A stretch of DNA of 64,000 nt, taken from IMG/VR virus record IMGVR_UViG_3300030616_000025, positions 1 to 64,000 of that record; one strand, written 5' to 3'. Under the pieces are notes generated by a model. That model saw nothing but the letters and a program-made list of their open reading frames with translations. It was not told the origin of the DNA and ran no database searches. Both the position numbers and the translations under genes were made by a program. Source of the DNA: a virus. Shown in pieces: positions 742 to 61,896 of the stretch. The stretch's first letter is position 1. The number at the start of each line of letters is the position of its first letter.

Positions 742-999
742 ATGGAAGAAATCATGAGTATAAAGGTGAAAAAATTTAATTTTTTGTTGCATGCATCGTA
801 TTCTGTGGAAACAGAAAGCAATGAATACTCACTCTGTGTAACACCCACAGAGGCTGTAATCAATATTGAGACTAATACTAAGGGCAAACAAATGCAGACT
901 GTTAGCATTCCGCGAAATGTATTAGAATGCTTTTTGGATGAGATAACCTTAAATGGTTTGCCAAAACTTATTGCGTTTTCACAGAAAGCAACAACATGA
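742..999 (+). CDS. hypothetical protein
   Basis: Same GAAAGGAAAAGTT-ATG initiation context as at 169. Its stop overlaps the next start. Confidence 0.5.
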   Translation: MEEIMSIKVKKFNFLLHASYSVETESNEYSLCVTPTEAVINIETNTKGKQMQTVSIPRNVLECFLDEITLNGLPKLIAFSQKATT

Positions 1000-3503
1000 A
1001 CACCAAACCAGCGGAAAAGAAAAAAGTACTATTTATAGCAACACTTCCCTGCGTGAGACTGTGGCGCACGGCGAAAGTGCTTCAAAAGAACGGATGGGAA
1101 GTATATCTGGGGCAGATGCAATCCACGCTGACGGAGTATTTCAAGCTTGACTATTCGCCGTTCAAGGAAGTATTTGAAATGTCAAGCCGCGGAGGATTTC
1201 ACCATATCAAAGAATACTTCGACATAGTACATTCGCACAATGAACCGGATACGCTTTCCGCAATGGCGGCGCTAAGCATGAAAAATTCAAGCACGGGGCT
1301 TGTGCATGACTGCCATGATTTTGTAAGCGCAAAAGCCGGGGTAAGACTGCACGAACACGACAGGATAGTAGAGCTAATGGCTAATACGTTTGTAGACTTA
1401 GCCGTGTATTGCAGTGAGCATCAATATCAACACGTGCAGGGATTGATACGTGAGAACATGCCTAAGAGCGTAATCTTGTTTAACGCGCCGTTAGAAGAAT
1501 ATATACCTAAAACATTACCGGATAAAAAGGTCAATAAGAATAAACCAAAAATAGTGTACGCCGGTACGATCCGCGAGGTAAAAGAAAGTCACAGATACTT
1601 TATAGACGAGTTTATGAAAATACTGAAAATGGGATATGAACTGTATGTGTACGCGCCGCATGTGCCGAAGGAATACGACAAGATGTTCAGGGGGTTCAGG
1701 AACGCTCACAATATGGGACACTGCAATTACCCGGACTTAATCAAGGAACTAAGTCAATACGATTTCGGTATCATGCCGTTCCAGATTACCAGAGAAAATT
1801 ATCCGCACCTTAGACATGGATTGCCGAATAAGCTGTTTGAGTATTTTTCAGCAGGATTGCCCGTGATAAGCAAGGCGGGTATGGATGCTTCTAACGTGAT
1901 AATTGAGGGTGAAAAATTAGGATATGTATACAATGACATAGACGAAATTCGCACGGAAATACCTAAATTGTGGGATATAGAAGTACCGCGGTTCAAATGG
2001 ACAGCGGATAAGGAAGTCGAGAACAAACTACTCCCGGCGTATGAAGATATACGCGCATACAGGAAATACAATCAAGCAGACCCTAAGCGGGAAGTGAATA
2101 TCCGGGAAGTCAAGGGAAACGTATGTGTGATAGACGGTTGGAAGGATGGAGAAAAATTTACATACAAAGATGAATCCGGGGAAGAAAAGGAAAACATATC
2201 ACACGTATACGGCAAAACAAATCACGATAAAGATTTAATCATAGAATCTTTTATGCGGGAGATTGAAGCAGAGGGCGCATTACCGGATTATGTCGTGGAA
2301 ACATCGAAGGACGAAAAGGAGATAAAGAAACGTGCCGAAATGATACAGAAAAGACACAAGGCACGGCGCAAGGAAAGAAAAAAGGAAATAACAACACTCA
2401 TAAAAAACGGCAGGGGAAGAATACCGTATGATGAAAAAATGATACTCATTAGCGGTATGGTGTTATGCAAGAATGAGCAAAAAACAATAGAGAACACAAT
2501 AACCAGTCTGTATTATCTATGTGATGAAATCATAGTGCAGGACAATATGAGTACTGATGACTCAATGAAAATAGTGAAGAAATATCCTAAGTGCCGCACA
2601 TCTGAATTTGATATACAGCCGTGGGATTTTTCGGTGGCGCGGAACAATGCAAGCAAGCAATGCAGGGGGAAATACATAGCGGTAATTGACGCGGACGAAG
2701 AGCTTGATACTGACCCCGCTACGATACGTCAGCAGATCATAGACGATTATAACCGGGGATATATACAGCCGTACAATATGCACACGGTTCAAATAGGAGA
2801 TATGGGAACGCCGACAAGTCATCTAACGCAGATACGTATATATCCGAACAACGATGATTTTAAATGGGCGCGGAGAGAGCATAACCAGATAAAATTTCCA
2901 GACAATAAATATGTCATACAGAAGACGAATTGGCAGAACTTTCATTTTGGATTTCTTGATCCGGCGAAGAAAAAAGCGCGGGAAGAAAGAGCTAACACAT
3001 ATATAGAAATGCTCAAAGTCGAGCTTGCGGAAATGAAAGAGGAAGGTATTGAATTATTGCCGGAATTTGAAAAGGTCATCAATCTGACTAAGTACTGTTG
3101 CTTTATGAGCCGGGAAGATGAATGTCTGGAATTAGGTCGATGGGGATATGAGCAATTCAAGACGTTCCCGAAAACGAATCAGGGGATATTGAGCAGATTT
3201 TTAATAAGTTTTTCTAACGCTCTGATAATTGAAGGGAACTTTGACGAAGCCGAGGACGTACTGAATACATACACAAACCTGATGGGATCGATAGTCGATT
3301 CGTGTTTTTTAAAGCATGTTGTCTCGTACAGAAAGGGGCAGATAATATCATCGCTGATATGGGCGATAAAATACCTTGAACTATTGCAGATCGAACCTAT
3401 GCAGAATGCTTTTAATTATCAGATAACTACCGTATTCTGGGGAATGGTACAGAAGAAATTGCGTTGGCTGAAATGGTTAGTTGACAATTATATGGAGATA
3501 TGA
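996..3503 (+). CDS. bifunctional glycosyltransferase (GT4-like N-terminal half, GT2-like middle, helical-repeat tail)
   Basis: GT-B signature KLFEYFSAGLPVISKAGMD...GEKLGYVY. The GT-A part has ILISGMVLCKNEQKTIENTI...IIVQDNMSTDDS and the DxD-type motif AVIDADEEL. Confidence 0.8.
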   Translation: MNTKPAEKKKVLFIATLPCVRLWRTAKVLQKNGWEVYLGQMQSTLTEYFKLDYSPFKEVFEMSSRGGFHHIKEYFDIVHSHNEPDTLSAMAALSMKNSSTGLVHDCHDFVSAKAGVRLHEHDRIVELMANTFVDLAVYCSEHQYQHVQGLIRENMPKSVILFNAPLEEYIPKTLPDKKVNKNKPKIVYAGTIREVKESHRYFIDEFMKILKMGYELYVYAPHVPKEYDKMFRGFRNAHNMGHCNYPDLIKELSQYDFGIMPFQITRENYPHLRHGLPNKLFEYFSAGLPVISKAGMDASNVIIEGEKLGYVYNDIDEIRTEIPKLWDIEVPRFKWTADKEVENKLLPAYEDIRAYRKYNQADPKREVNIREVKGNVCVIDGWKDGEKFTYKDESGEEKENISHVYGKTNHDKDLIIESFMREIEAEGALPDYVVETSKDEKEIKKRAEMIQKRHKARRKERKKEITTLIKNGRGRIPYDEKMILISGMVLCKNEQKTIENTITSLYYLCDEIIVQDNMSTDDSMKIVKKYPKCRTSEFDIQPWDFSVARNNASKQCRGKYIAVIDADEELDTDPATIRQQIIDDYNRGYIQPYNMHTVQIGDMGTPTSHLTQIRIYPNNDDFKWARREHNQIKFPDNKYVIQKTNWQNFHFGFLDPAKKKAREERANTYIEMLKVELAEMKEEGIELLPEFEKVINLTKYCCFMSREDECLELGRWGYEQFKTFPKTNQGILSRFLISFSNALIIEGNFDEAEDVLNTYTNLMGSIVDSCFLKHVVSYRKGQIISSLIWAIKYLELLQIEPMQNAFNYQITTVFWGMVQKKLRWLKWLVDNYMEI

Positions 3504-3504
3504 A

Positions 3505-3849
3505 ATGAAAAGAAGCTTAATGACAGCAAAAGAATTACAGGAAAGATATTTAGATGATAATGCTTTGGAATTGAGTATAGAAAAATGGCAGAGAGCAGGA
3601 TACAAATCAAACTGGGAAACATTAAAAGATTCACCTATGCATTATATTGACGGTCGGACTTGCGGATTGTGCAGCAAGTATTTTGATACTGATTATGGTG
3701 AATGTTATAACTGTCCATTAAAATCATGTGGCGAAGGAACGTATTGGGATAAGGTTTATGGTGCTGCGCTCAGGGGAGATCGAGACAAATTCATGAAAGC
3801 CAGAAATGCATTATTAAAAAAGATGAAGAAAGCGAGGGACGCGAAATGA
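3505..3849 (+). CDS. hypothetical Cys-rich protein
   Basis: ATG after GGAGATATGAA. CGLC...CYNC...C pattern. The TTG start at 3481 given in the ORF track is less likely. Confidence 0.5.
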   Translation: MKRSLMTAKELQERYLDDNALELSIEKWQRAGYKSNWETLKDSPMHYIDGRTCGLCSKYFDTDYGECYNCPLKSCGEGTYWDKVYGAALRGDRDKFMKARNALLKKMKKARDAK

Positions 3850-4082: not shown

Positions 4083-4327
4083 TGAAGACAAAATATAAGT
4101 GGATTCGGTTTCAGCAAGGAGCTTATGACAAAAACCTTTGGCGGTGTTACAATAAAGATGATGAATGTTTGGGTGAAGTCAGCTATGAAAAAGGATGGAG
4201 ACAATTTGTTTTTTGTCCTAACGATATGTATCCGGCGGGGACTATTTATAATTTTAGATGTCTTGAAGACATAGCTGATTTTCTAAAGCAACTAAACAAG
4301 ACAAAAGGATGCTATAAAGAAAAATGA
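4082..4327 (+). CDS. hypothetical protein
   Basis: TAATG junction with the upstream gene. Confidence 0.5.
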   Translation: MKTKYKWIRFQQGAYDKNLWRCYNKDDECLGEVSYEKGWRQFVFCPNDMYPAGTIYNFRCLEDIADFLKQLNKTKGCYKEK

Positions 4328-4662
4328 AACACAATAACTGTCTTACAGAAGAAGATGAATTTGGAAAAGAATTAGCAAATGATTGGGGGTTTCAAGGCAA
4401 ATGGCCGATTTGTAGTTTTTGTAATAACCCAATGCGAATATGTTTTGCAACAACTGGAGATTGGAATGATGATTTTTCCGATAGAAAAAACCTATCAAGA
4501 CGCTTTGCTTTTTTTTGCGAATGCGATGAATGGGAAATGTGGAGACAAAAATTAAATCTTTGTTTTATAAATAAAATACCGATCACAGTAAAAGATTTAT
4601 CGGATATTTACAAGGGCAGATATGACAGAGATAAAAACAGGAGCGAACAAGACAATGAATAA
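4324..4662 (+). CDS. hypothetical Cys-rich protein
   Basis: ATGA overlap. CSFCNNP...CFATT...FFCEC pattern. Confidence 0.5.
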   Translation: MKHNNCLTEEDEFGKELANDWGFQGKWPICSFCNNPMRICFATTGDWNDDFSDRKNLSRRFAFFCECDEWEMWRQKLNLCFINKIPITVKDLSDIYKGRYDRDKNRSEQDNE

Positions 4663-5554
4663 ATATTTAGTGACAGCAGGACAGGGATTAGGAAATCAGA
4701 TTGAAACAATACCGCTGATTGAATGGCTGATACAGCATGACATAGATATAGATGTGTGCTATTGCCATCGCCCGAAAATAGACGGTGATCCGGGGAAAAG
4801 CAAAGTACTTGAAATGTACTGCGACAAAAGAAACATACCGTTCGAAATAAGCGACAACGGCAAGGTGGAATTTCCAGAGCACTACGAAGGGCAGTTAGTA
4901 GGATGTTGGACAGCGCCGAGGAAAGGAGTATATATATGCGCACAGGCGAACCGAAGCTATACTAACGAGATAATGGCGAATATGGACATTCTAAGACAGA
5001 TGAAGCTAACGGATAACGTAACAGACTGTCTTGCTGAAGTTATGCCCTTAGAATGGGAATGCGGGGTCGGACACGATATTGTGCTGTGCAACGGGGGATT
5101 CAACACAGATAAATGGCGCAGGAAGAAATACCCGCACTTTGAACAGCTTGCTGAAATGCTTCACATATTGGGCTACAGCGTGGTAAGCGTGGGAAGAAAA
5201 GACGAATACATACCCGGAACAGTAGACAAGACAGAGATAGGCATGGTAGAGACAGCGGAGATAATAGCGAACAGCCGAATGGGTATCTTTACCGACTCTG
5301 GGTGGTATCACTGGAAGGGCTTGATCGGGGGGAAAGGAATAGCGCTATTCACAGCAACGAACGTCAAAAAGAACTATCATCCGTTAGCGTATCCAGAAAT
5401 TACAGTTATGCAGAAGGGGCTTAAATGCCAGCCGTGCCAGTCTGAAACGTGGGAATGTACGGAGATGTGGCACAGGTGTACACAGTGGAGATGTCAGGAT
5501 ATAGAGCCGAAGAAGATAGTTAAAAATGTGCAGAAAATTTTAAAAATTACTTGA
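4655..5554 (+). CDS. glycosyltransferase family 9 (heptosyltransferase-like)
   Basis: LVTAGQGLGNQIETIPLI at the N-terminus. GIFTDSGWYHW...IALFTATN resembles the GT9 DSGpmHlA...lFG block, and a C-terminal CQPC...C...C cluster is present. The start could instead be 4622. Confidence 0.6.
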   Translation: MNKYLVTAGQGLGNQIETIPLIEWLIQHDIDIDVCYCHRPKIDGDPGKSKVLEMYCDKRNIPFEISDNGKVEFPEHYEGQLVGCWTAPRKGVYICAQANRSYTNEIMANMDILRQMKLTDNVTDCLAEVMPLEWECGVGHDIVLCNGGFNTDKWRRKKYPHFEQLAEMLHILGYSVVSVGRKDEYIPGTVDKTEIGMVETAEIIANSRMGIFTDSGWYHWKGLIGGKGIALFTATNVKKNYHPLAYPEITVMQKGLKCQPCQSETWECTEMWHRCTQWRCQDIEPKKIVKNVQKILKIT

Positions 5555-58111: not shown

Positions 58112-58669
58112 ATGAGCAAGACAAGAAACGCGGAAGAGTTTAAGAAATCGGATTACAGGCATAGTCCGTTACCGTGGCAAACAAGTGATGTGCTAATGTG
58201 GACTATTATTGATAAGGATAATTTATCCGTTGTGCAAGTGACAAACGGAAACAGAGAGGAGCGTAAGGCAAACGCCGAATTTATTGTTGAGGCCTGCAAT
58301 GAGCATTGGAGACTAAAGGCAGAAAGCGAATCTGCGGAGAAAACAATAAACGCCAGAAATGAATTGATAGGAGAGCTGCAAGCGGAGAATGAGGAGTTGA
58401 AGAGGGATAGGTGCGAACACTGTGGAACAAAGCTGAATTTAGACGGGTGCCTTCTTTGCGGTGCTCCTGTCTGCTGTCCCCATTGTTGTCAAATTACGTC
58501 GTTTGAAATGGAGATAGAAAAGCTCGAACAGCAGAACAAGGAGCTTGTGGAGGCTCTTGAAAACTACATAAATGCCAAATCACGACCACATGGAATAAAA
58601 AACCCAAACGAAATCGAGAGAACTTGGTTCGAATTGTTAAATGCAATCAAAAAAGCGAAAGGAGAATAA
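58112..58669 (+). CDS. mosaic coiled-coil protein (SPLPW domain, Cys cluster, KKAKGE tail; Ea22-like architecture)
   Basis: HSPLPW...ANAEFIVEACN, LQAENEELK, LEQQNKELVEALE. Ends IKKAKGE. Confidence 0.5.
   Translation: MSKTRNAEEFKKSDYRHSPLPWQTSDVLMWTIIDKDNLSVVQVTNGNREERKANAEFIVEACNEHWRLKAESESAEKTINARNELIGELQAENEELKRDRCEHCGTKLNLDGCLLCGAPVCCPHCCQITSFEMEIEKLEQQNKELVEALENYINAKSRPHGIKNPNEIERTWFELLNAIKKAKGE
58646..58669 (+). repeat. junction repeat ATCAAAAAAGCGAAAGGAGAATAA, copy 1
   Basis: Encodes the (I)KKAKGE stop and carries the SD for the next gene. Confidence 0.8.
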
Positions 58670-58670
58670 C

Positions 58671-59138
58671 ATGGAAAAAGAGAAGAAAGCGGAGCATAGT
58701 CCGTTGCCGTGGCATACCGACAGAGAGAGGGCTTTTATATGGGGGCAAGATAAAGAACACGGAGAAATGATTGCAGAGATTAGAAATTGGGGATATTTAA
58801 CGTCAGTTATGAATTTAACGGAAGAGGAAGCGGTCACAGTACAGTACGCTAATGCAGAGTTTATCGTTAAAGCCTGTAATAATTATTATGATCTACAGAA
58901 AGCACTTGAGCACAGAATGGAAGAAGTCGAAAAGTTGAAAGAGCAGAATAAAAACCTAAACAAATTCGACAAAGAAAATTGTGCAAGAATGGAAGAACAG
59001 GACAGGATTCTTAAAAAGCTGAAAGCGGAGAATACGGAGCTTGTGGAGCTAATCAAATTATGTGACAAAGAAAAGGATGAATTAAGAATGCAATTGGCAG
59101 ATGCATATAAAGAGATCAAAAAAGCGAAAGGAGAATAA
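58671..59138 (+). CDS. mosaic coiled-coil protein (SPLPW domain, KKAKGE tail)
   Basis: HSPLPW...ANAEFIVKACN, NTELVELIK. Ends IKKAKGE. The start follows the shared GGAGAATAAC. Confidence 0.5.
   Translation: MEKEKKAEHSPLPWHTDRERAFIWGQDKEHGEMIAEIRNWGYLTSVMNLTEEEAVTVQYANAEFIVKACNNYYDLQKALEHRMEEVEKLKEQNKNLNKFDKENCARMEEQDRILKKLKAENTELVELIKLCDKEKDELRMQLADAYKEIKKAKGE
59115..59138 (+). repeat. junction repeat, copy 2
   Basis: Identical 24-mer. Confidence 0.8.
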
Positions 59139-59140
59139 AG

Positions 59141-59422
59141 ATGAGCGAAGCAAAAAGATATGATCACCAAATTTGCGAAGAGTATGCCGGAGATGCAGAA
59201 TGCCCCGGTATGGTTGAGTCGGAGGATGGCGAATATGTGGAGTATAAAGATTATGAAGCACTGCAAGCGGAGAATGAGGAGTCGAAGGCCCTTATTAAAG
59301 GTTATAAGGAGCTTGTGGAGTTACTTGAGAAGTATGAATTAAAAACTTGCGCTATACCAGATGAAGAATTTCAAGAGATGAATCGCAAGGTCAGAGCAAT
59401 CAAAAAAGCGAAAGGAAAATAA
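59141..59422 (+). CDS. mosaic coiled-coil protein (KKAKGK tail)
   Basis: EALQAENEESK, KELVELLE. Ends IKKAKGK. Confidence 0.5.
   Translation: MSEAKRYDHQICEEYAGDAECPGMVESEDGEYVEYKDYEALQAENEESKALIKGYKELVELLEKYELKTCAIPDEEFQEMNRKVRAIKKAKGK
59399..59422 (+). repeat. junction repeat, copy 3 (one mismatch)
   Basis: ATCAAAAAAGCGAAAGGAAAATAA. Confidence 0.75.
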
Positions 59423-59464
59423 ATGCGCCTCTGGCACTACAAACTAATACCGATACTTGACAGA
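59423..59464 (+). pseudogene. 14-codon 5' remnant of a pyrimidine-dimer-glycosylase-like (TIGR02328-type) gene
   Basis: Encodes MRLWHYKLIPILDR, identical to the start of the gene at 60347. After this the frame runs into unrelated sequence and stops at 59530. Confidence 0.55.
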
Positions 59465-59529
59465 AAAAAAATTATTTTTGTTTGCAATTTGGGAAAAAAT
59501 ATGTCATTATTAAAGCGGAGATCGAGATA

Positions 59530-59631
59530 ATGATATATAGATTTAACTCTGTTGGCAGAATCCTTTTCGGCAATTATCGCCGTCTCGGTCTCCTTCTGTC
59601 AACAGAGTTTTTATTTGGAGATCGAGAATGA
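59530..59631 (+). CDS. leader ORF (33 aa) coupled to the HNH gene
   Basis: Preceded by GGAGATCGAGATA-ATG. Its TGA overlaps the HNH ATG. May be regulatory only. Confidence 0.3.
   Translation: MIYRFNSVGRILFGNYRRLGLLLSTEFLFGDRE
59545..59616 (+). terminator. long-stem terminator/attenuator-like hairpin upstream of the HNH gene
   Basis: AACTCTGTTGGCAG (59545-59558) pairs with CTGTCAACAGAGTT (59596-59609) over 14 bp with one G-U pair. TTTTTATTT follows. Confidence 0.4.
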
Positions 59632-60347
59632 ATAAAATTAACAACAATCTCAAATACGGAAAAAATTGTATAGGGCAAACGGTTATAAACAATTATGGTG
59701 AAACCGGATTAATTGTTGATATGTACACAGAGACAGATAATCACAAAAAATGTATGGTAAAAATAATGTATCCCGACGGAACTTGGCATTGTAGGGAAAA
59801 ACATTTTGTTAATATTGGATCGTTTAAAAAGCCTTATAAATTCGACTTAAAAGAAGATCTTAAAAATGGATTCAAACCTGTTTATGGATGGGAGGATTAT
59901 TATATTATAAATAAATATGGGGTTATAAAAACAATATTTGGAAAACACAAGGGAAAAATAAAAAGACAAAGTAATCGGTGGAAATACAGTTCTTACAGAA
60001 AATCTCAAGTATATAAAAACCCTTATAAAGCTATTTGTTTGTATAAGAGGGGTAAAGAAACAAGAAAAAATAGATTGGTTCATACTATTATGGTGGAGAC
60101 ATTTATTCGGACGCTCAAAAAAGGAGAGCAGGTAAATCATATAAATGGCATTTCATCAGATAACAGACTTATAAATCTTGAAATTGTCAATAGACAAAAT
60201 AATAATAAAAAATATAGGGATTTTGGTTTTCTTAGCGAAGAAGAAATAAAAAAACTTGATAATTTCTGCTGGGATAACAATATGAACTATAAAGAGGCTA
60301 TTCATTGTTTTGTGAAGTCTTTTTTAACAAAGGAGGTGATGCTATAA
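59628..60347 (+). CDS. HNH homing endonuclease (NUMOD4-like N-terminus plus HNH_3-like core)
   Basis: YGWEDYYIINKYGVIKT and LVHTIMVETFI...GEQVNHINGISSDNRLINLEIV. Confidence 0.8.
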   Translation: MNKINNNLKYGKNCIGQTVINNYGETGLIVDMYTETDNHKKCMVKIMYPDGTWHCREKHFVNIGSFKKPYKFDLKEDLKNGFKPVYGWEDYYIINKYGVIKTIFGKHKGKIKRQSNRWKYSSYRKSQVYKNPYKAICLYKRGKETRKNRLVHTIMVETFIRTLKKGEQVNHINGISSDNRLINLEIVNRQNNNKKYRDFGFLSEEEIKKLDNFCWDNNMNYKEAIHCFVKSFLTKEVML

Positions 60348-60746
60348 TGAGGCTCTGGCATTATAAATTAATACCTATATTGGATAGACAAAGGTTGCTG
60401 GGGCAGCATTGACTGTCTTAGAGAATGCTGTGCGCTTAGGGGAAACGGTTGGGGGAGGAAACATTCTACTGTTGATTATGTGTTTGAGCACAAGTATTGC
60501 TTGCTTGTCAATTATCACTGGAATGTGATTGCGGAAATGGTTGCACGTGGATATAATTACAATAGATTGTGGGACAGTTATATATACAGGGGTAAAAATT
60601 GCAAGGTTCGCACTGATGATAGATCGCTTGTTCCTCAATATCATTACCCCGAACATGACGAAGAATATCTAACTGAATGTAAAGAACTGCTGATCGAAAA
60701 AGACCCGGATTTTTACAAACCACTTTTTGAAGGAGCAAAGAAATGA
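60347..60746 (+). pseudogene. pyrimidine-dimer DNA glycosylase-like gene (TIGR02328/Pyr_excise-like) interrupted by a 10-nt insertion
   Basis: Frame A gives MRLWHYKLIPILDRQRLLGQH then a stop at 60410. A second frame from 60420 gives RECCALRGNGWGRKHSTVDYVFEH... to 60746. Deleting 60410-60419 restores the contiguous GQHRECCALRG block. Confidence 0.65.
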
Positions 60747-60979
60747 ATCTGGCGAACAGAAAAGGAAACTACGCGGAAGAAAAGCATGTAGCAATAAGAG
60801 GCGTAAATCAGGTACACAGGATGTGTCCTGAATGCGGAATAACAATGGCTGTCTGGACGGAGGAAGAATACAGACTGCATAGGCACGAATGTGAAGACCA
60901 GTGGGACAGGACGCTTGAAAAACACTGCATGAAATATCACCCGAAATTGACGCGGGTATATGTTCCGGCTATAGGTTAA
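60743..60979 (+). CDS. zinc-finger protein
   Basis: CPECG...HRHEC pattern. ATGA overlap. Confidence 0.45.
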   Translation: MNLANRKGNYAEEKHVAIRGVNQVHRMCPECGITMAVWTEEEYRLHRHECEDQWDRTLEKHCMKYHPKLTRVYVPAIG

Positions 60980-60990
60980 GGAGAGAAAAG

Positions 60991-61344
60991 ATGGAAAATG
61001 AATCAATAAAACGAATGTTAAGTAAAATCAATATTGCCTGGAGAGGATATAAGCCGGAATACTTTTTGGAACGAGTCAAGGAAATACTTGTCAAAGAATT
61101 TGAAGCACTGCAAGCGGAGAATGAGGAGCTGGGAAAGTTGTCTATGGCAAGACAAAAAGAACTGGTTGAAAGGAATCATGCCTTATGCAAGGAGCTAAAT
61201 ACTTTAGAACAGCAGAACAAGGAGCTTGTGGAGGCTTTGGAGGAAGCCATAGAATGGATAGTTGAAATACACGGAGAGGACGGGAAAAATTTAGCGGGGG
61301 TATACAGGTTGACAAATCTTGTCAAAAAAGCGAAAGGAGAATAA
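60991..61344 (+). CDS. mosaic coiled-coil protein (KKAKGE tail)
   Basis: EALQAENEELG, LEQQNKELVEALE. Ends VKKAKGE. Confidence 0.5.
   Translation: MENESIKRMLSKINIAWRGYKPEYFLERVKEILVKEFEALQAENEELGKLSMARQKELVERNHALCKELNTLEQQNKELVEALEEAIEWIVEIHGEDGKNLAGVYRLTNLVKKAKGE
61321..61344 (+). repeat. junction repeat, copy 4
   Basis: GTCAAAAAAGCGAAAGGAGAATAA. Confidence 0.8.
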
Positions 61345-61896
61345 ATGAATTACATCGTATCAGGATTAGAACGATCAGGAACATCTTTAATGATGGCTAT
61401 ACTGGAAGCCGGGGGATTTCCCGTGGCGTATGACGAATCGCGGAAGCCGGACGAAAGTAATCCCAAAGGATACTATGAGCTATTCGGCGGGAAGATAATA
61501 AACAGGCTTATGGAAAACGAAGTCTATATGCACCTATACGATGAATCAGCAATTAAGATAACGTCTGTAGGTTTGACTTTTCTTCCGCGCGAATATGACT
61601 ACCGTATAATATACATGGAGCGGGATATTAAAGAAGTAAAAATGTCCATGCAGAAAATGGCGAAGGAAAAATTAGCAGACAATCTCGAAGAGCTATTACA
61701 CACAGAGAACGTCTTTCTGAAAGACTACATGGACGAAAGCGGATATGAATATATTGTAGTGAATTACAATAGTCTCTTGACAAATCCGGGAAAGGAGATT
61801 AAAAGGGTGTCTGACTTTTGCGGGGGAATAGATATTGAAAAAGCGGAAACGGTTATAGACAGGAAGCTTTACCGAAACAGAAAGGAAGAGAAATGA
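61345..61896 (+). CDS. sulfotransferase-family protein
   Basis: IVSGLERSGTSLMMAIL PAPS-loop-type N-terminus. ~180 aa, the size of small bacterial sulfotransferases. Confidence 0.6.
   Translation: MNYIVSGLERSGTSLMMAILEAGGFPVAYDESRKPDESNPKGYYELFGGKIINRLMENEVYMHLYDESAIKITSVGLTFLPREYDYRIIYMERDIKEVKMSMQKMAKEKLADNLEELLHTENVFLKDYMDESGYEYIVVNYNSLLTNPGKEIKRVSDFCGGIDIEKAETVIDRKLYRNRKEEK

Follow-up and report, generated by a model that had tools for sequence, protein, structure and literature searches.

The closest described system is the mobA/gene 60 cassette of phage T4, which, as far as it is described in bioRxiv 10.1101/2022.08.31.505936 (after Bonocora et al. 2011), combines an HNH endonuclease with a replacement 'HomR' segment and a 50-nt frame-breaking bypass insert. 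The same preprint reports that self-nicking by MobA is blocked by the frame-breaking insert, ~20 nt away from the nick site, whereas the polymorphisms do not account for it, and that all known gene 60-type bypass cassettes carry matched take-off and landing codons together with a mini-SD.

The window analysed here, a stretch of 64,000 nucleotides of viral DNA (positions 1 to 64,000 of IMG/VR record IMGVR_UViG_3300030616_000025), contains a locus with a comparable organisation. As in mobA/gene 60, an HNH ORF lies inside a conserved gene whose downstream part restarts at a start codon overlapping the end of the endonuclease ORF, a divergent copy of target coding DNA appears to be borne by the cassette (79% identity here versus 67–81% there), and a frame-breaking insert, with a stop right after the last correct codon, is situated ~20 nt from the homology or nick region. 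Unlike in mobA/gene 60, however, the target is a TIGR02328 glycosylase instead of a topoisomerase, the parental 5′ codons have stayed as a remnant instead of being deleted, and the gene is restarted whole instead of split. Moreover, the insert measures 10 nt instead of ~50, is not accompanied by matched codons, a mini-SD or a significant take-off stem-loop, and is missing from three sister lineages.

The glycosylase frame that opens at the ATG at 60347 runs via CAG CAT (60404–60409) directly into a TGA (60410–60412), as can be read straight from the sequence and as the original prediction had noted. Also in agreement with that prediction, the RECC frame resumes at 60420 (AGA GAA TGC TGT) in the +1 frame, and this downstream frame offers no ATG, GTG or TTG until the GTG at 60480. 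The two frames are separated by a 10-nt insert, TGACTGTCTT (60410–60419, plus strand, with a boundary that is ambiguous by one T), of which the first triplet constitutes the in-frame TGA and which throws the downstream part of the gene into the +1 frame. The remainder of the glycosylase (60420–60746, plus strand; codons 22–129, RECCALRG...) encodes RECCALRGNGWGRKH... and is open and undecayed, although it lacks a start codon of its own. With the TGA at 60410–60412 and the remainder in the +1 frame, no single uninterrupted ORF covers the whole Pyr_excise domain. Deletion of 60410–60419, which leaves CAGCAT directly followed by AGAGAATGCTGT at the junction, restored the frame and yielded a 129-aa protein that passed the family profile cut-offs. 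The insert separates H21 from the invariant R22-E23, and the boundary of a duplication of the 5′ end of the gene lies 21 nt 5′ of it.

The inserted 10-mer is unique within the window and its flanks are non-repetitive. No template spanning the insert boundaries was found, with the longest boundary-spanning matches elsewhere measuring 10 nt, which is at chance level, and a templated or duplicative origin of the 10 nt was rejected on these grounds. Likewise, a search of the insert for fill-in duplication or templated origin as a mark of repair found neither. Stop-codon reassignment was also rejected, because TGA and TAA are equally frequent as stops in the window and because read-through could not rescue the frame either, given an insert length (10 nt) that is not divisible by 3. 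The public gene call on the source contig places a 93-aa antisense ORF (60375–60656, minus strand) where the broken glycosylase should be. Because of the frame break this call is likely spurious, and the public annotation can be flagged as wrong in that it gives the antisense ORF and misses the broken glycosylase.

The original prediction had further placed the insert in the loop of a 7-bp inverted repeat. This repeat exists and its right arm was located correctly (60424–60430), but its left arm spans 60404–60410 and not 60405–60411. As a special feature, however, the hairpin did not hold up, since its folding energy of -14.2 kcal/mol corresponds to a z of only -0.89 and was equalled by 36 of 200 shuffled sequences. 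Complementarity between the Q-H and the E-C-C codons already provides a 6-bp stem (CAGCAT/ATGCTG) in the insert-less sequence, and the hairpin was therefore discarded as a signal, being not significant and inherent to the codons.

To our knowledge, no TIGR02328 member has been biochemically characterised. Aligned to both family profiles, as the original prediction had proposed, the repaired ORF passed TIGR02328 with 142.9 bits (cut-off 121.15) and PF03013 (Pyr_excise) with 80.8 bits (cut-off 23). In a 41-sequence alignment it retained all 26 invariant positions and 22 nearly invariant ones, including R22-E23, and the N-terminal MRLWH and Q-H-R-E motifs are present with their fixed spacing once the insert is removed. 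The repaired ORF thus resembles DenV and the PF03013 family of pyrimidine-dimer DNA glycosylases in passing the curated cut-offs and in keeping the invariant residues, R22-E23 among them, but differs from DenV (T4 endonuclease V) in its broken reading frame and in a structural similarity that is remote (TM ~0.5, E ~0.5). The AlphaFold model of the repaired protein (pLDDT 88.8) gave T4 endonuclease V for all top four PDB fold matches (2END, 1ENJ and related entries), albeit as weak matches (TM ~0.5, E 0.5–1.5), and positioned the junction in the middle of helix 14–28. In this model, the insert falls midway in the predicted catalytic helix that carries R22-E23.

The original assertion that homologs are contiguous at GQH-RECC was borne out by the family. 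In 120 of the 120 top proteins QHRE lies equally far from the N-terminus, with R22 and E23 invariant, and QHRE is unbroken in a further 118 relatives of a sister gene. At the DNA level, one tblastn segment spans the junction in all 39 IMG/VR loci and in all 80 metagenome loci. Homologs that naturally carry extra in-frame residues at this position, which had been put forward as a possible counter-argument, were found nowhere among these ~240 proteins and ~120 loci. Frame breaks as such are rare in the family, with one other lineage (L036/L037) among ~120 loci. This independent glycosylase pseudogene (L036, 3535–3841; L037, 4001–4307) has no endonuclease nearby and combines a change of the catalytic Glu to Lys (E23K, QWRKC) with a 1-nt frameshift near residue 30. 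In yet another locus (L034, 3720–4864), two tandem divergent Pyr_excise paralogs lie behind a 94-aa ORF with an AP2-like motif (GYRGVY...), the stop of which overlaps the ATG of the first paralog; this 94-aa ORF may represent the decayed remains of a different type of endonuclease in the equivalent position.

Upstream of the broken frame, the locus consists of two copies of the glycosylase 5′ end enclosing the endonuclease ORF. The first copy (59423–59464, plus strand) comprises codons 1–14, MRLWHYKLIPILDR, and then runs into unrelated sequence up to a stop at 59528–59530. It forms part of a 47-nt direct repeat with 60346–60392 (79% identical, at a spacing of 924 nt), and over the coding segments proper (59423–59464 versus 60347–60388) the DNA identity likewise amounts to 79%. 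The ATG of the first copy is located at a junction motif, AAAAAAGCGAAAGGA[GA]AATAAATG, that recurs at 58652, 59121, 59405 and 61327, and its GC content of 43% is genome-like (41% for the window), as opposed to 29% for the HNH ORF and 31% for codons 1–14 of the second copy. Because of this junction motif and genome-like GC content, in contrast to the low-GC block of the HNH ORF and the second copy, the first copy was taken to be the native start. Codon usage was discarded as a means of telling the native 5′ copy, since the log-likelihoods were indistinguishable, and GC content and junction motif were informative instead. The second copy (60347–60409, plus strand) provides the new glycosylase 5′ end, codons 1–21 (MRLWHYKLIPILDRQRLLGQH), and is preceded by a GGAGG RBS of its own inside the end of the endonuclease ORF.

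The intact HNH ORF in between (59628–60347, plus strand) encodes 239 aa and its TAA stop overlaps the glycosylase ATG (TAATG). Residues 150–193 matched PF13392 (HNH_3) with 30.1 bits (cut-off 24.8), and the nearest solved structure, although a weak match, is that of the nicking homing endonuclease I-HmuI (1U3E). The ORF would thus encode a putative I-HmuI-like homing endonuclease, of which the activity and target are presumed from sequence. Like the I-HmuI-type (HNH_3/NUMOD4) phage endonucleases, it combines an HNH_3 domain with a low GC content and with presence or absence at homologous loci, and it interrupts a gene where conservation is highest and the active site is encoded. Unlike the intron-encoded I-HmuI type, there is no intron here and the element brings a duplicate RBS, ATG and 5′ coding segment, because of which the target gene is still expressible. 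In line with this, no Rfam match was obtained in 58500–61500 at E <= 1, and a group I or group II intron around the endonuclease ORF was therefore rejected for that interval. Splicing would moreover be unnecessary, because the glycosylase 5′ end is duplicated.

The first copy and the endonuclease ORF are connected by a cassette spacer (59465–59627, plus strand) that contains a 33-aa linking ORF (59530–59631, with TAATG and ATGA overlaps), a hairpin with a U-run and 11-nt direct repeats. As a result, an overlap chain extends from the ORF of the first copy via TAATG to the 33-aa ORF, via ATGA to the HNH ORF, and via TAATG to the 21-aa ORF of the second copy. The spacer hairpin (59545–59609; -30.6 kcal/mol, z = -4.5) is followed by the U-run UUUUUAUUU and may serve to terminate or attenuate expression of the endonuclease. 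On both sides it is bordered by an identical 11-nt direct repeat, GGAGATCGAGA (at 59517 and 59617), with an ATG after each copy. A further copy of GGAGATCGAGA at position 3775 of the window was dismissed as a chance match inside an unrelated ORF. The block at 59517–59631 is not repeated elsewhere in the window and gives the impression of a 100-nt stretch inserted or duplicated ahead of the endonuclease start. The spacer junction sequence TTGACAGAAAAAAAATT matched the region upstream of the endonuclease ORF in loci L041, L044 and L045 at 16 of 17 positions.

Since the glycosylase 5′ end is duplicated around the endonuclease ORF, a feature that the original prediction had missed, the locus can be read as a homing-endonuclease cassette insertion. 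Judging from sequence composition and layout, a foreign cassette appears to have been inserted after native codon 14, bringing in the spacer and the HNH gene along with a new 5′ coding segment that has its own RBS and ATG.

The HNH/glycosylase block sits between paralogs from a set of four small coiled-coil ORFs (58112–59422 and 60991–61344), with junctions at 58652, 59121, 59405 and 61327. These paralogs share the motifs LQAENEEL and LEQQNKELVEALE and all end in IKKAKG[EK] directly before the stop, and their last conserved codons (AAAGGAGAATAA) also provide the RBS for the gene that follows. The repeated paralog junctions may represent recombination or module boundaries. Just downstream of the locus (61345–61896), a sulfotransferase-domain protein is encoded (PF00685/PF13469), and an 835-aa ORF at 996–3503 of the window was judged by eye to be glycosyltransferase-like, the two together making for an unusual gene content.

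The HNH protein of the window has very few relatives, all of which are encoded at the equivalent position, and the layout of remnant, HNH ORF and restarted gene recurs in three other lineages, namely L182, L041/L044/L045 and L018/L020. Full-length relatives of the HNH protein (41–46% identity) occupy the equivalent position in the former two. In L041/L044/L045 the identity is 43–46% and the endonuclease stop overlaps the glycosylase start as ATGA, while in L182 the HNH ORF (357–1025; 41% identity) is followed by an intact glycosylase gene (1022–1426) and preceded by a remnant of 20 codons (208–270) that reads MRLWNQSLIPYLDRQHLLAK up to its stop. In L018/L020 the layout is the same, but the HNH protein is a distant relative (33% identity over the core) and in L018 is fused in frame to the remnant MRLWDYRLIPVLPK. 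In all cassette lineages the homology breaks at codons 14–19. Further endonuclease loci of the L018 type or the window type were not found among 56 HNH relatives in IMG/VR, of which only those of L018/L020 adjoin a glycosylase gene, and a scan of GTDB genomes for such loci also yielded none.

The endonuclease is absent from ~115 of the ~120 family loci, and L187 (without endonuclease) and L182 (with endonuclease) offer a direct contrast; both presence/absence polymorphism and foreign composition are hence seen for the HNH ORF. The L182 remnant is 87% identical to L187 over codons 1–18. Codons 13–26 of the second L182 copy, however, match L187 at only 57% identity, against ~80% in the stretches flanking them, whereas they share 71% with the linked L044 allele. 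Because codons 13–26 of L182 are unlike those of L187, the cassette-borne coding segment would span the QH/RE junction, and it behaves as the 'HomR' segment of T4 MobA/gene 60.

The insert itself was absent from the sister cassettes L041, L044, L045 and L182, in which QH-RE is contiguous. With three sister lineages lacking it, the insert is not a conserved cassette component. At codon 24, C is found in 119 of 120 of the closest homologs of the window, and the linked sister alleles read REAC or REVC. The substitution of codon 24 in these alleles was considered as proof of immunity but rejected, because position 24 is polymorphic in the sister sub-clade (C 79, L 22, A 9, V 4, I 1) and REVC and REAC alleles also occur without an upstream endonuclease, so that they are not diagnostic.

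Some further properties of these loci were recorded. In-frame TAG codons occur in L041 (138–803), L044 (3080–4164) and L045 (137–1221), six of them in the HNH ORF, and the glycosylase of these loci has TAG at codon 6, where relatives have Q. From the sequence, this indicates that TAG is probably read as sense (code-15-like) in these phages. In L187, ACG occupies the expected ATG start position (87–89) and the public gene call begins at an internal TTG. L183 contains an HNH_3/NUMOD4 ORF (4239–4895) 1.3 kb downstream of a REVC glycosylase, in a different gene context and without an endonuclease upstream of that glycosylase.

Together, these data point to a recent inactivating indel in the presumed target region of the endonuclease, in a cassette-invaded phage glycosylase gene, a reading to which we assign a probability of roughly 60%. 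As for its parts, the insert is very probably real and the glycosylase not productively recoded, and we see even odds that the insert is causally tied to the endonuclease, a link suggested by position. The original proposal of a fresh inactivation beside the endonuclease is upheld by the 10 nt that are extra relative to the whole family, by the otherwise undecayed gene and by the HNH gene adjoining upstream. Since the insert is located 21 nt from the duplication boundary of the cassette, a link between insert and endonuclease is also more plausible than mere proximity would make it.

In the proposed sequence of events, a mobile cassette would have invaded the TIGR02328/Pyr_excise (T4 endonuclease V-like) gene and left the first 14 native codons upstream. 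This remnant would feed translation into the endonuclease ORF via the chain of overlapping stops and starts, after which the glycosylase would restart from the new RBS and the ATG that overlaps the endonuclease stop. The insert would truncate the glycosylase product to a 21-aa peptide and thereby inactivate it, and because nothing else in the gene has decayed, this inactivation would be recent. The insert lies in the most conserved DNA of the glycosylase gene, which is the usual kind of homing target, and sits in the stretch that appears cassette-borne and most diverged in L182 and would correspond to the presumed recognition and cleavage region of the endonuclease. It could either destroy the endonuclease's own target, in a copy otherwise still open to cleavage, and so confer self-immunity in the way that the gene 60 insert protects against MobA, or possibly be the scar of cleavage followed by error-prone repair. 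Such a lesion would be tolerated because a UV-repair gene is dispensable.

Among the alternatives, the one that survives best, although we regard it as unlikely, is a spontaneous indel, in which a chance error of replication or recombination turned a dispensable gene into a fresh pseudogene and the proximity of the cassette is coincidental. Pseudogenes in this family do arise without an endonuclease, as witnessed by the E23K and 1-nt frameshift of L036/L037, and in L187 the start codon is replaced by ACG. An indel with no relation to the endonuclease would look no different from this one. Such an origin would also fit with the sister cassettes lacking the insert, with the missing repair signature at the insert, and with a probability of ~0.07 that the first triplet of a random insert is a stop. 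However, a frame break is a rare event in this family (~1 lineage in 120 loci), a non-duplicative insertion of 10 nt is an unusual spontaneous mutation, and this one occurred within ~20 nt of the cassette boundary, in a segment that is cassette-borne in L182.

Programmed recoding, also raised in the original prediction, would turn the locus into a miniature analogue of T4 gene 60 with a protective insert, in that either a +1 shift at CAU-UGA (yielding GQH-DCL-RECC, 132 aa) or a 10-nt hop would produce a functional glycosylase. Several features seem to speak for it: the UGA-C stop comes right after the last correct codon; with an insert of 3n+1 nt, one +1 shift suffices to regain the frame; apart from the insert the gene is perfectly intact; the +1 product, at 134.5 bits, remains above the TIGR02328 cut-off; and the cassette anatomy parallels that of MobA/gene 60. 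Furthermore, the site resembles the +1 site of prfB (RF2), where an in-frame UGA followed by C likewise coincides with a G-run 3 nt 5′ of the P-site codon (here CAU) and a +1 shift restores the frame. Unlike prfB, however, the P-site codon is CAU (CAU_U) and not the slippery CUU (CUU_U), the SD-like pairing is weak, and the site is not conserved. The G-rich stretch that had been pointed out is indeed present, but its anti-SD pairing amounts to only -4.7 kcal/mol, compared to -10.7 kcal/mol for prfB, and is equalled by 22% of the 12-mers of the genome.

By established codon-anticodon rules, moreover, tRNA-His cannot re-pair on AUU, as its anticodon (GUG/QUG) would be mismatched at positions 1 and 2. 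For a hop, the take-off codon CAU is not matched by the triplet before R22 (AGA), which is CUU, and the next CAU in the correct frame lies 55 nt downstream, where landing would delete RECC...RK. The 10-nt gap contains no mini-SD (neither GAG nor GGA), the hairpin (z = -0.9) does not provide a significant take-off stem-loop, the three residues added by a +1 shift would in the model fall midway in the catalytic helix and are unprecedented in >240 homologs, and sister elements lack the insert. With a poor +1 slip, unmatched take-off and landing codons, weak anti-SD pairing and related elements without the insert, the recoding suggestion did not stand and is very improbable. Equally little credence is given to its extended form, in which the 10 nt would be the minimal 'immunity insert' of an undescribed HEG cassette family that targets the catalytic-helix codons of TIGR02328 genes and would be compensated at the RNA level. 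We likewise hold it to be highly doubtful that such an insert would block self-cleavage in the DNA while an unconventional +1 shift or 10-nt hop at CAU-UGA-C, with neither a slippery nor a matched codon, rescues the protein; if true, it would constitute a second independent origin of the gene 60 solution.

Other copies of the locus were sought in several ways. Exact 27-nt and 32-nt DNA searches of IMG/VR and the JGI metagenomes revealed no other copy, and no sister allele emerged from exact-match searches with the HNH protein and its two neighbours, from back-translated scans of IMG/VR and metagenomes, from blastn, megablast and tblastn comparisons with GenBank phages, or from a search of 5.8 billion proteins, in which the best match was 62–64% identical. 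The sole other record of this DNA is the same 69-kb contig as deposited in ENA, which underlies L040, L042 and L043 alike and thus is no independent assembly. The phage is a database singleton, and the age, polarity and reality of the insert rest on one metagenome contig. The sequence does stem from a single MEGAHIT contig (k141_3008316 of ERZ27252234) without an independent record. That the 10 nt are an assembly or sequencing artefact, missing from the real phage population or present as a minor variant only, is nevertheless the least probable of the readings considered, since short-read assemblers rarely invent a unique non-repetitive 10-mer in unique sequence, the flanks of the insert are non-repetitive, and the contig otherwise encodes intact genes.

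Returning to the preferred reading of a recent inactivating indel beside the endonuclease, its significance depends in part on the link between the two. If this link holds, the locus would be a second natural example of the mobA/gene 60 logic, in which the endonuclease travels with a replacement copy of its target and a short frame-breaking insert protects the carrier genome, and it would be so in an unrelated gene and with an unrelated endonuclease lineage. As there would be no translational rescue here, it would then portray a selfish element that sacrifices a dispensable host gene. Whatever the 10 nt mean, the architecture of remnant, HNH ORF and restarted gene was seen in four lineages, of which two have HNH proteins that are distantly related, and it points to the DNA encoding QHRECC in TIGR02328 genes as a likely target of homing. 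This architecture models how free-standing endonucleases may enter a gene at its 5′ end, with neither an intron nor an intein involved and without splitting that gene.
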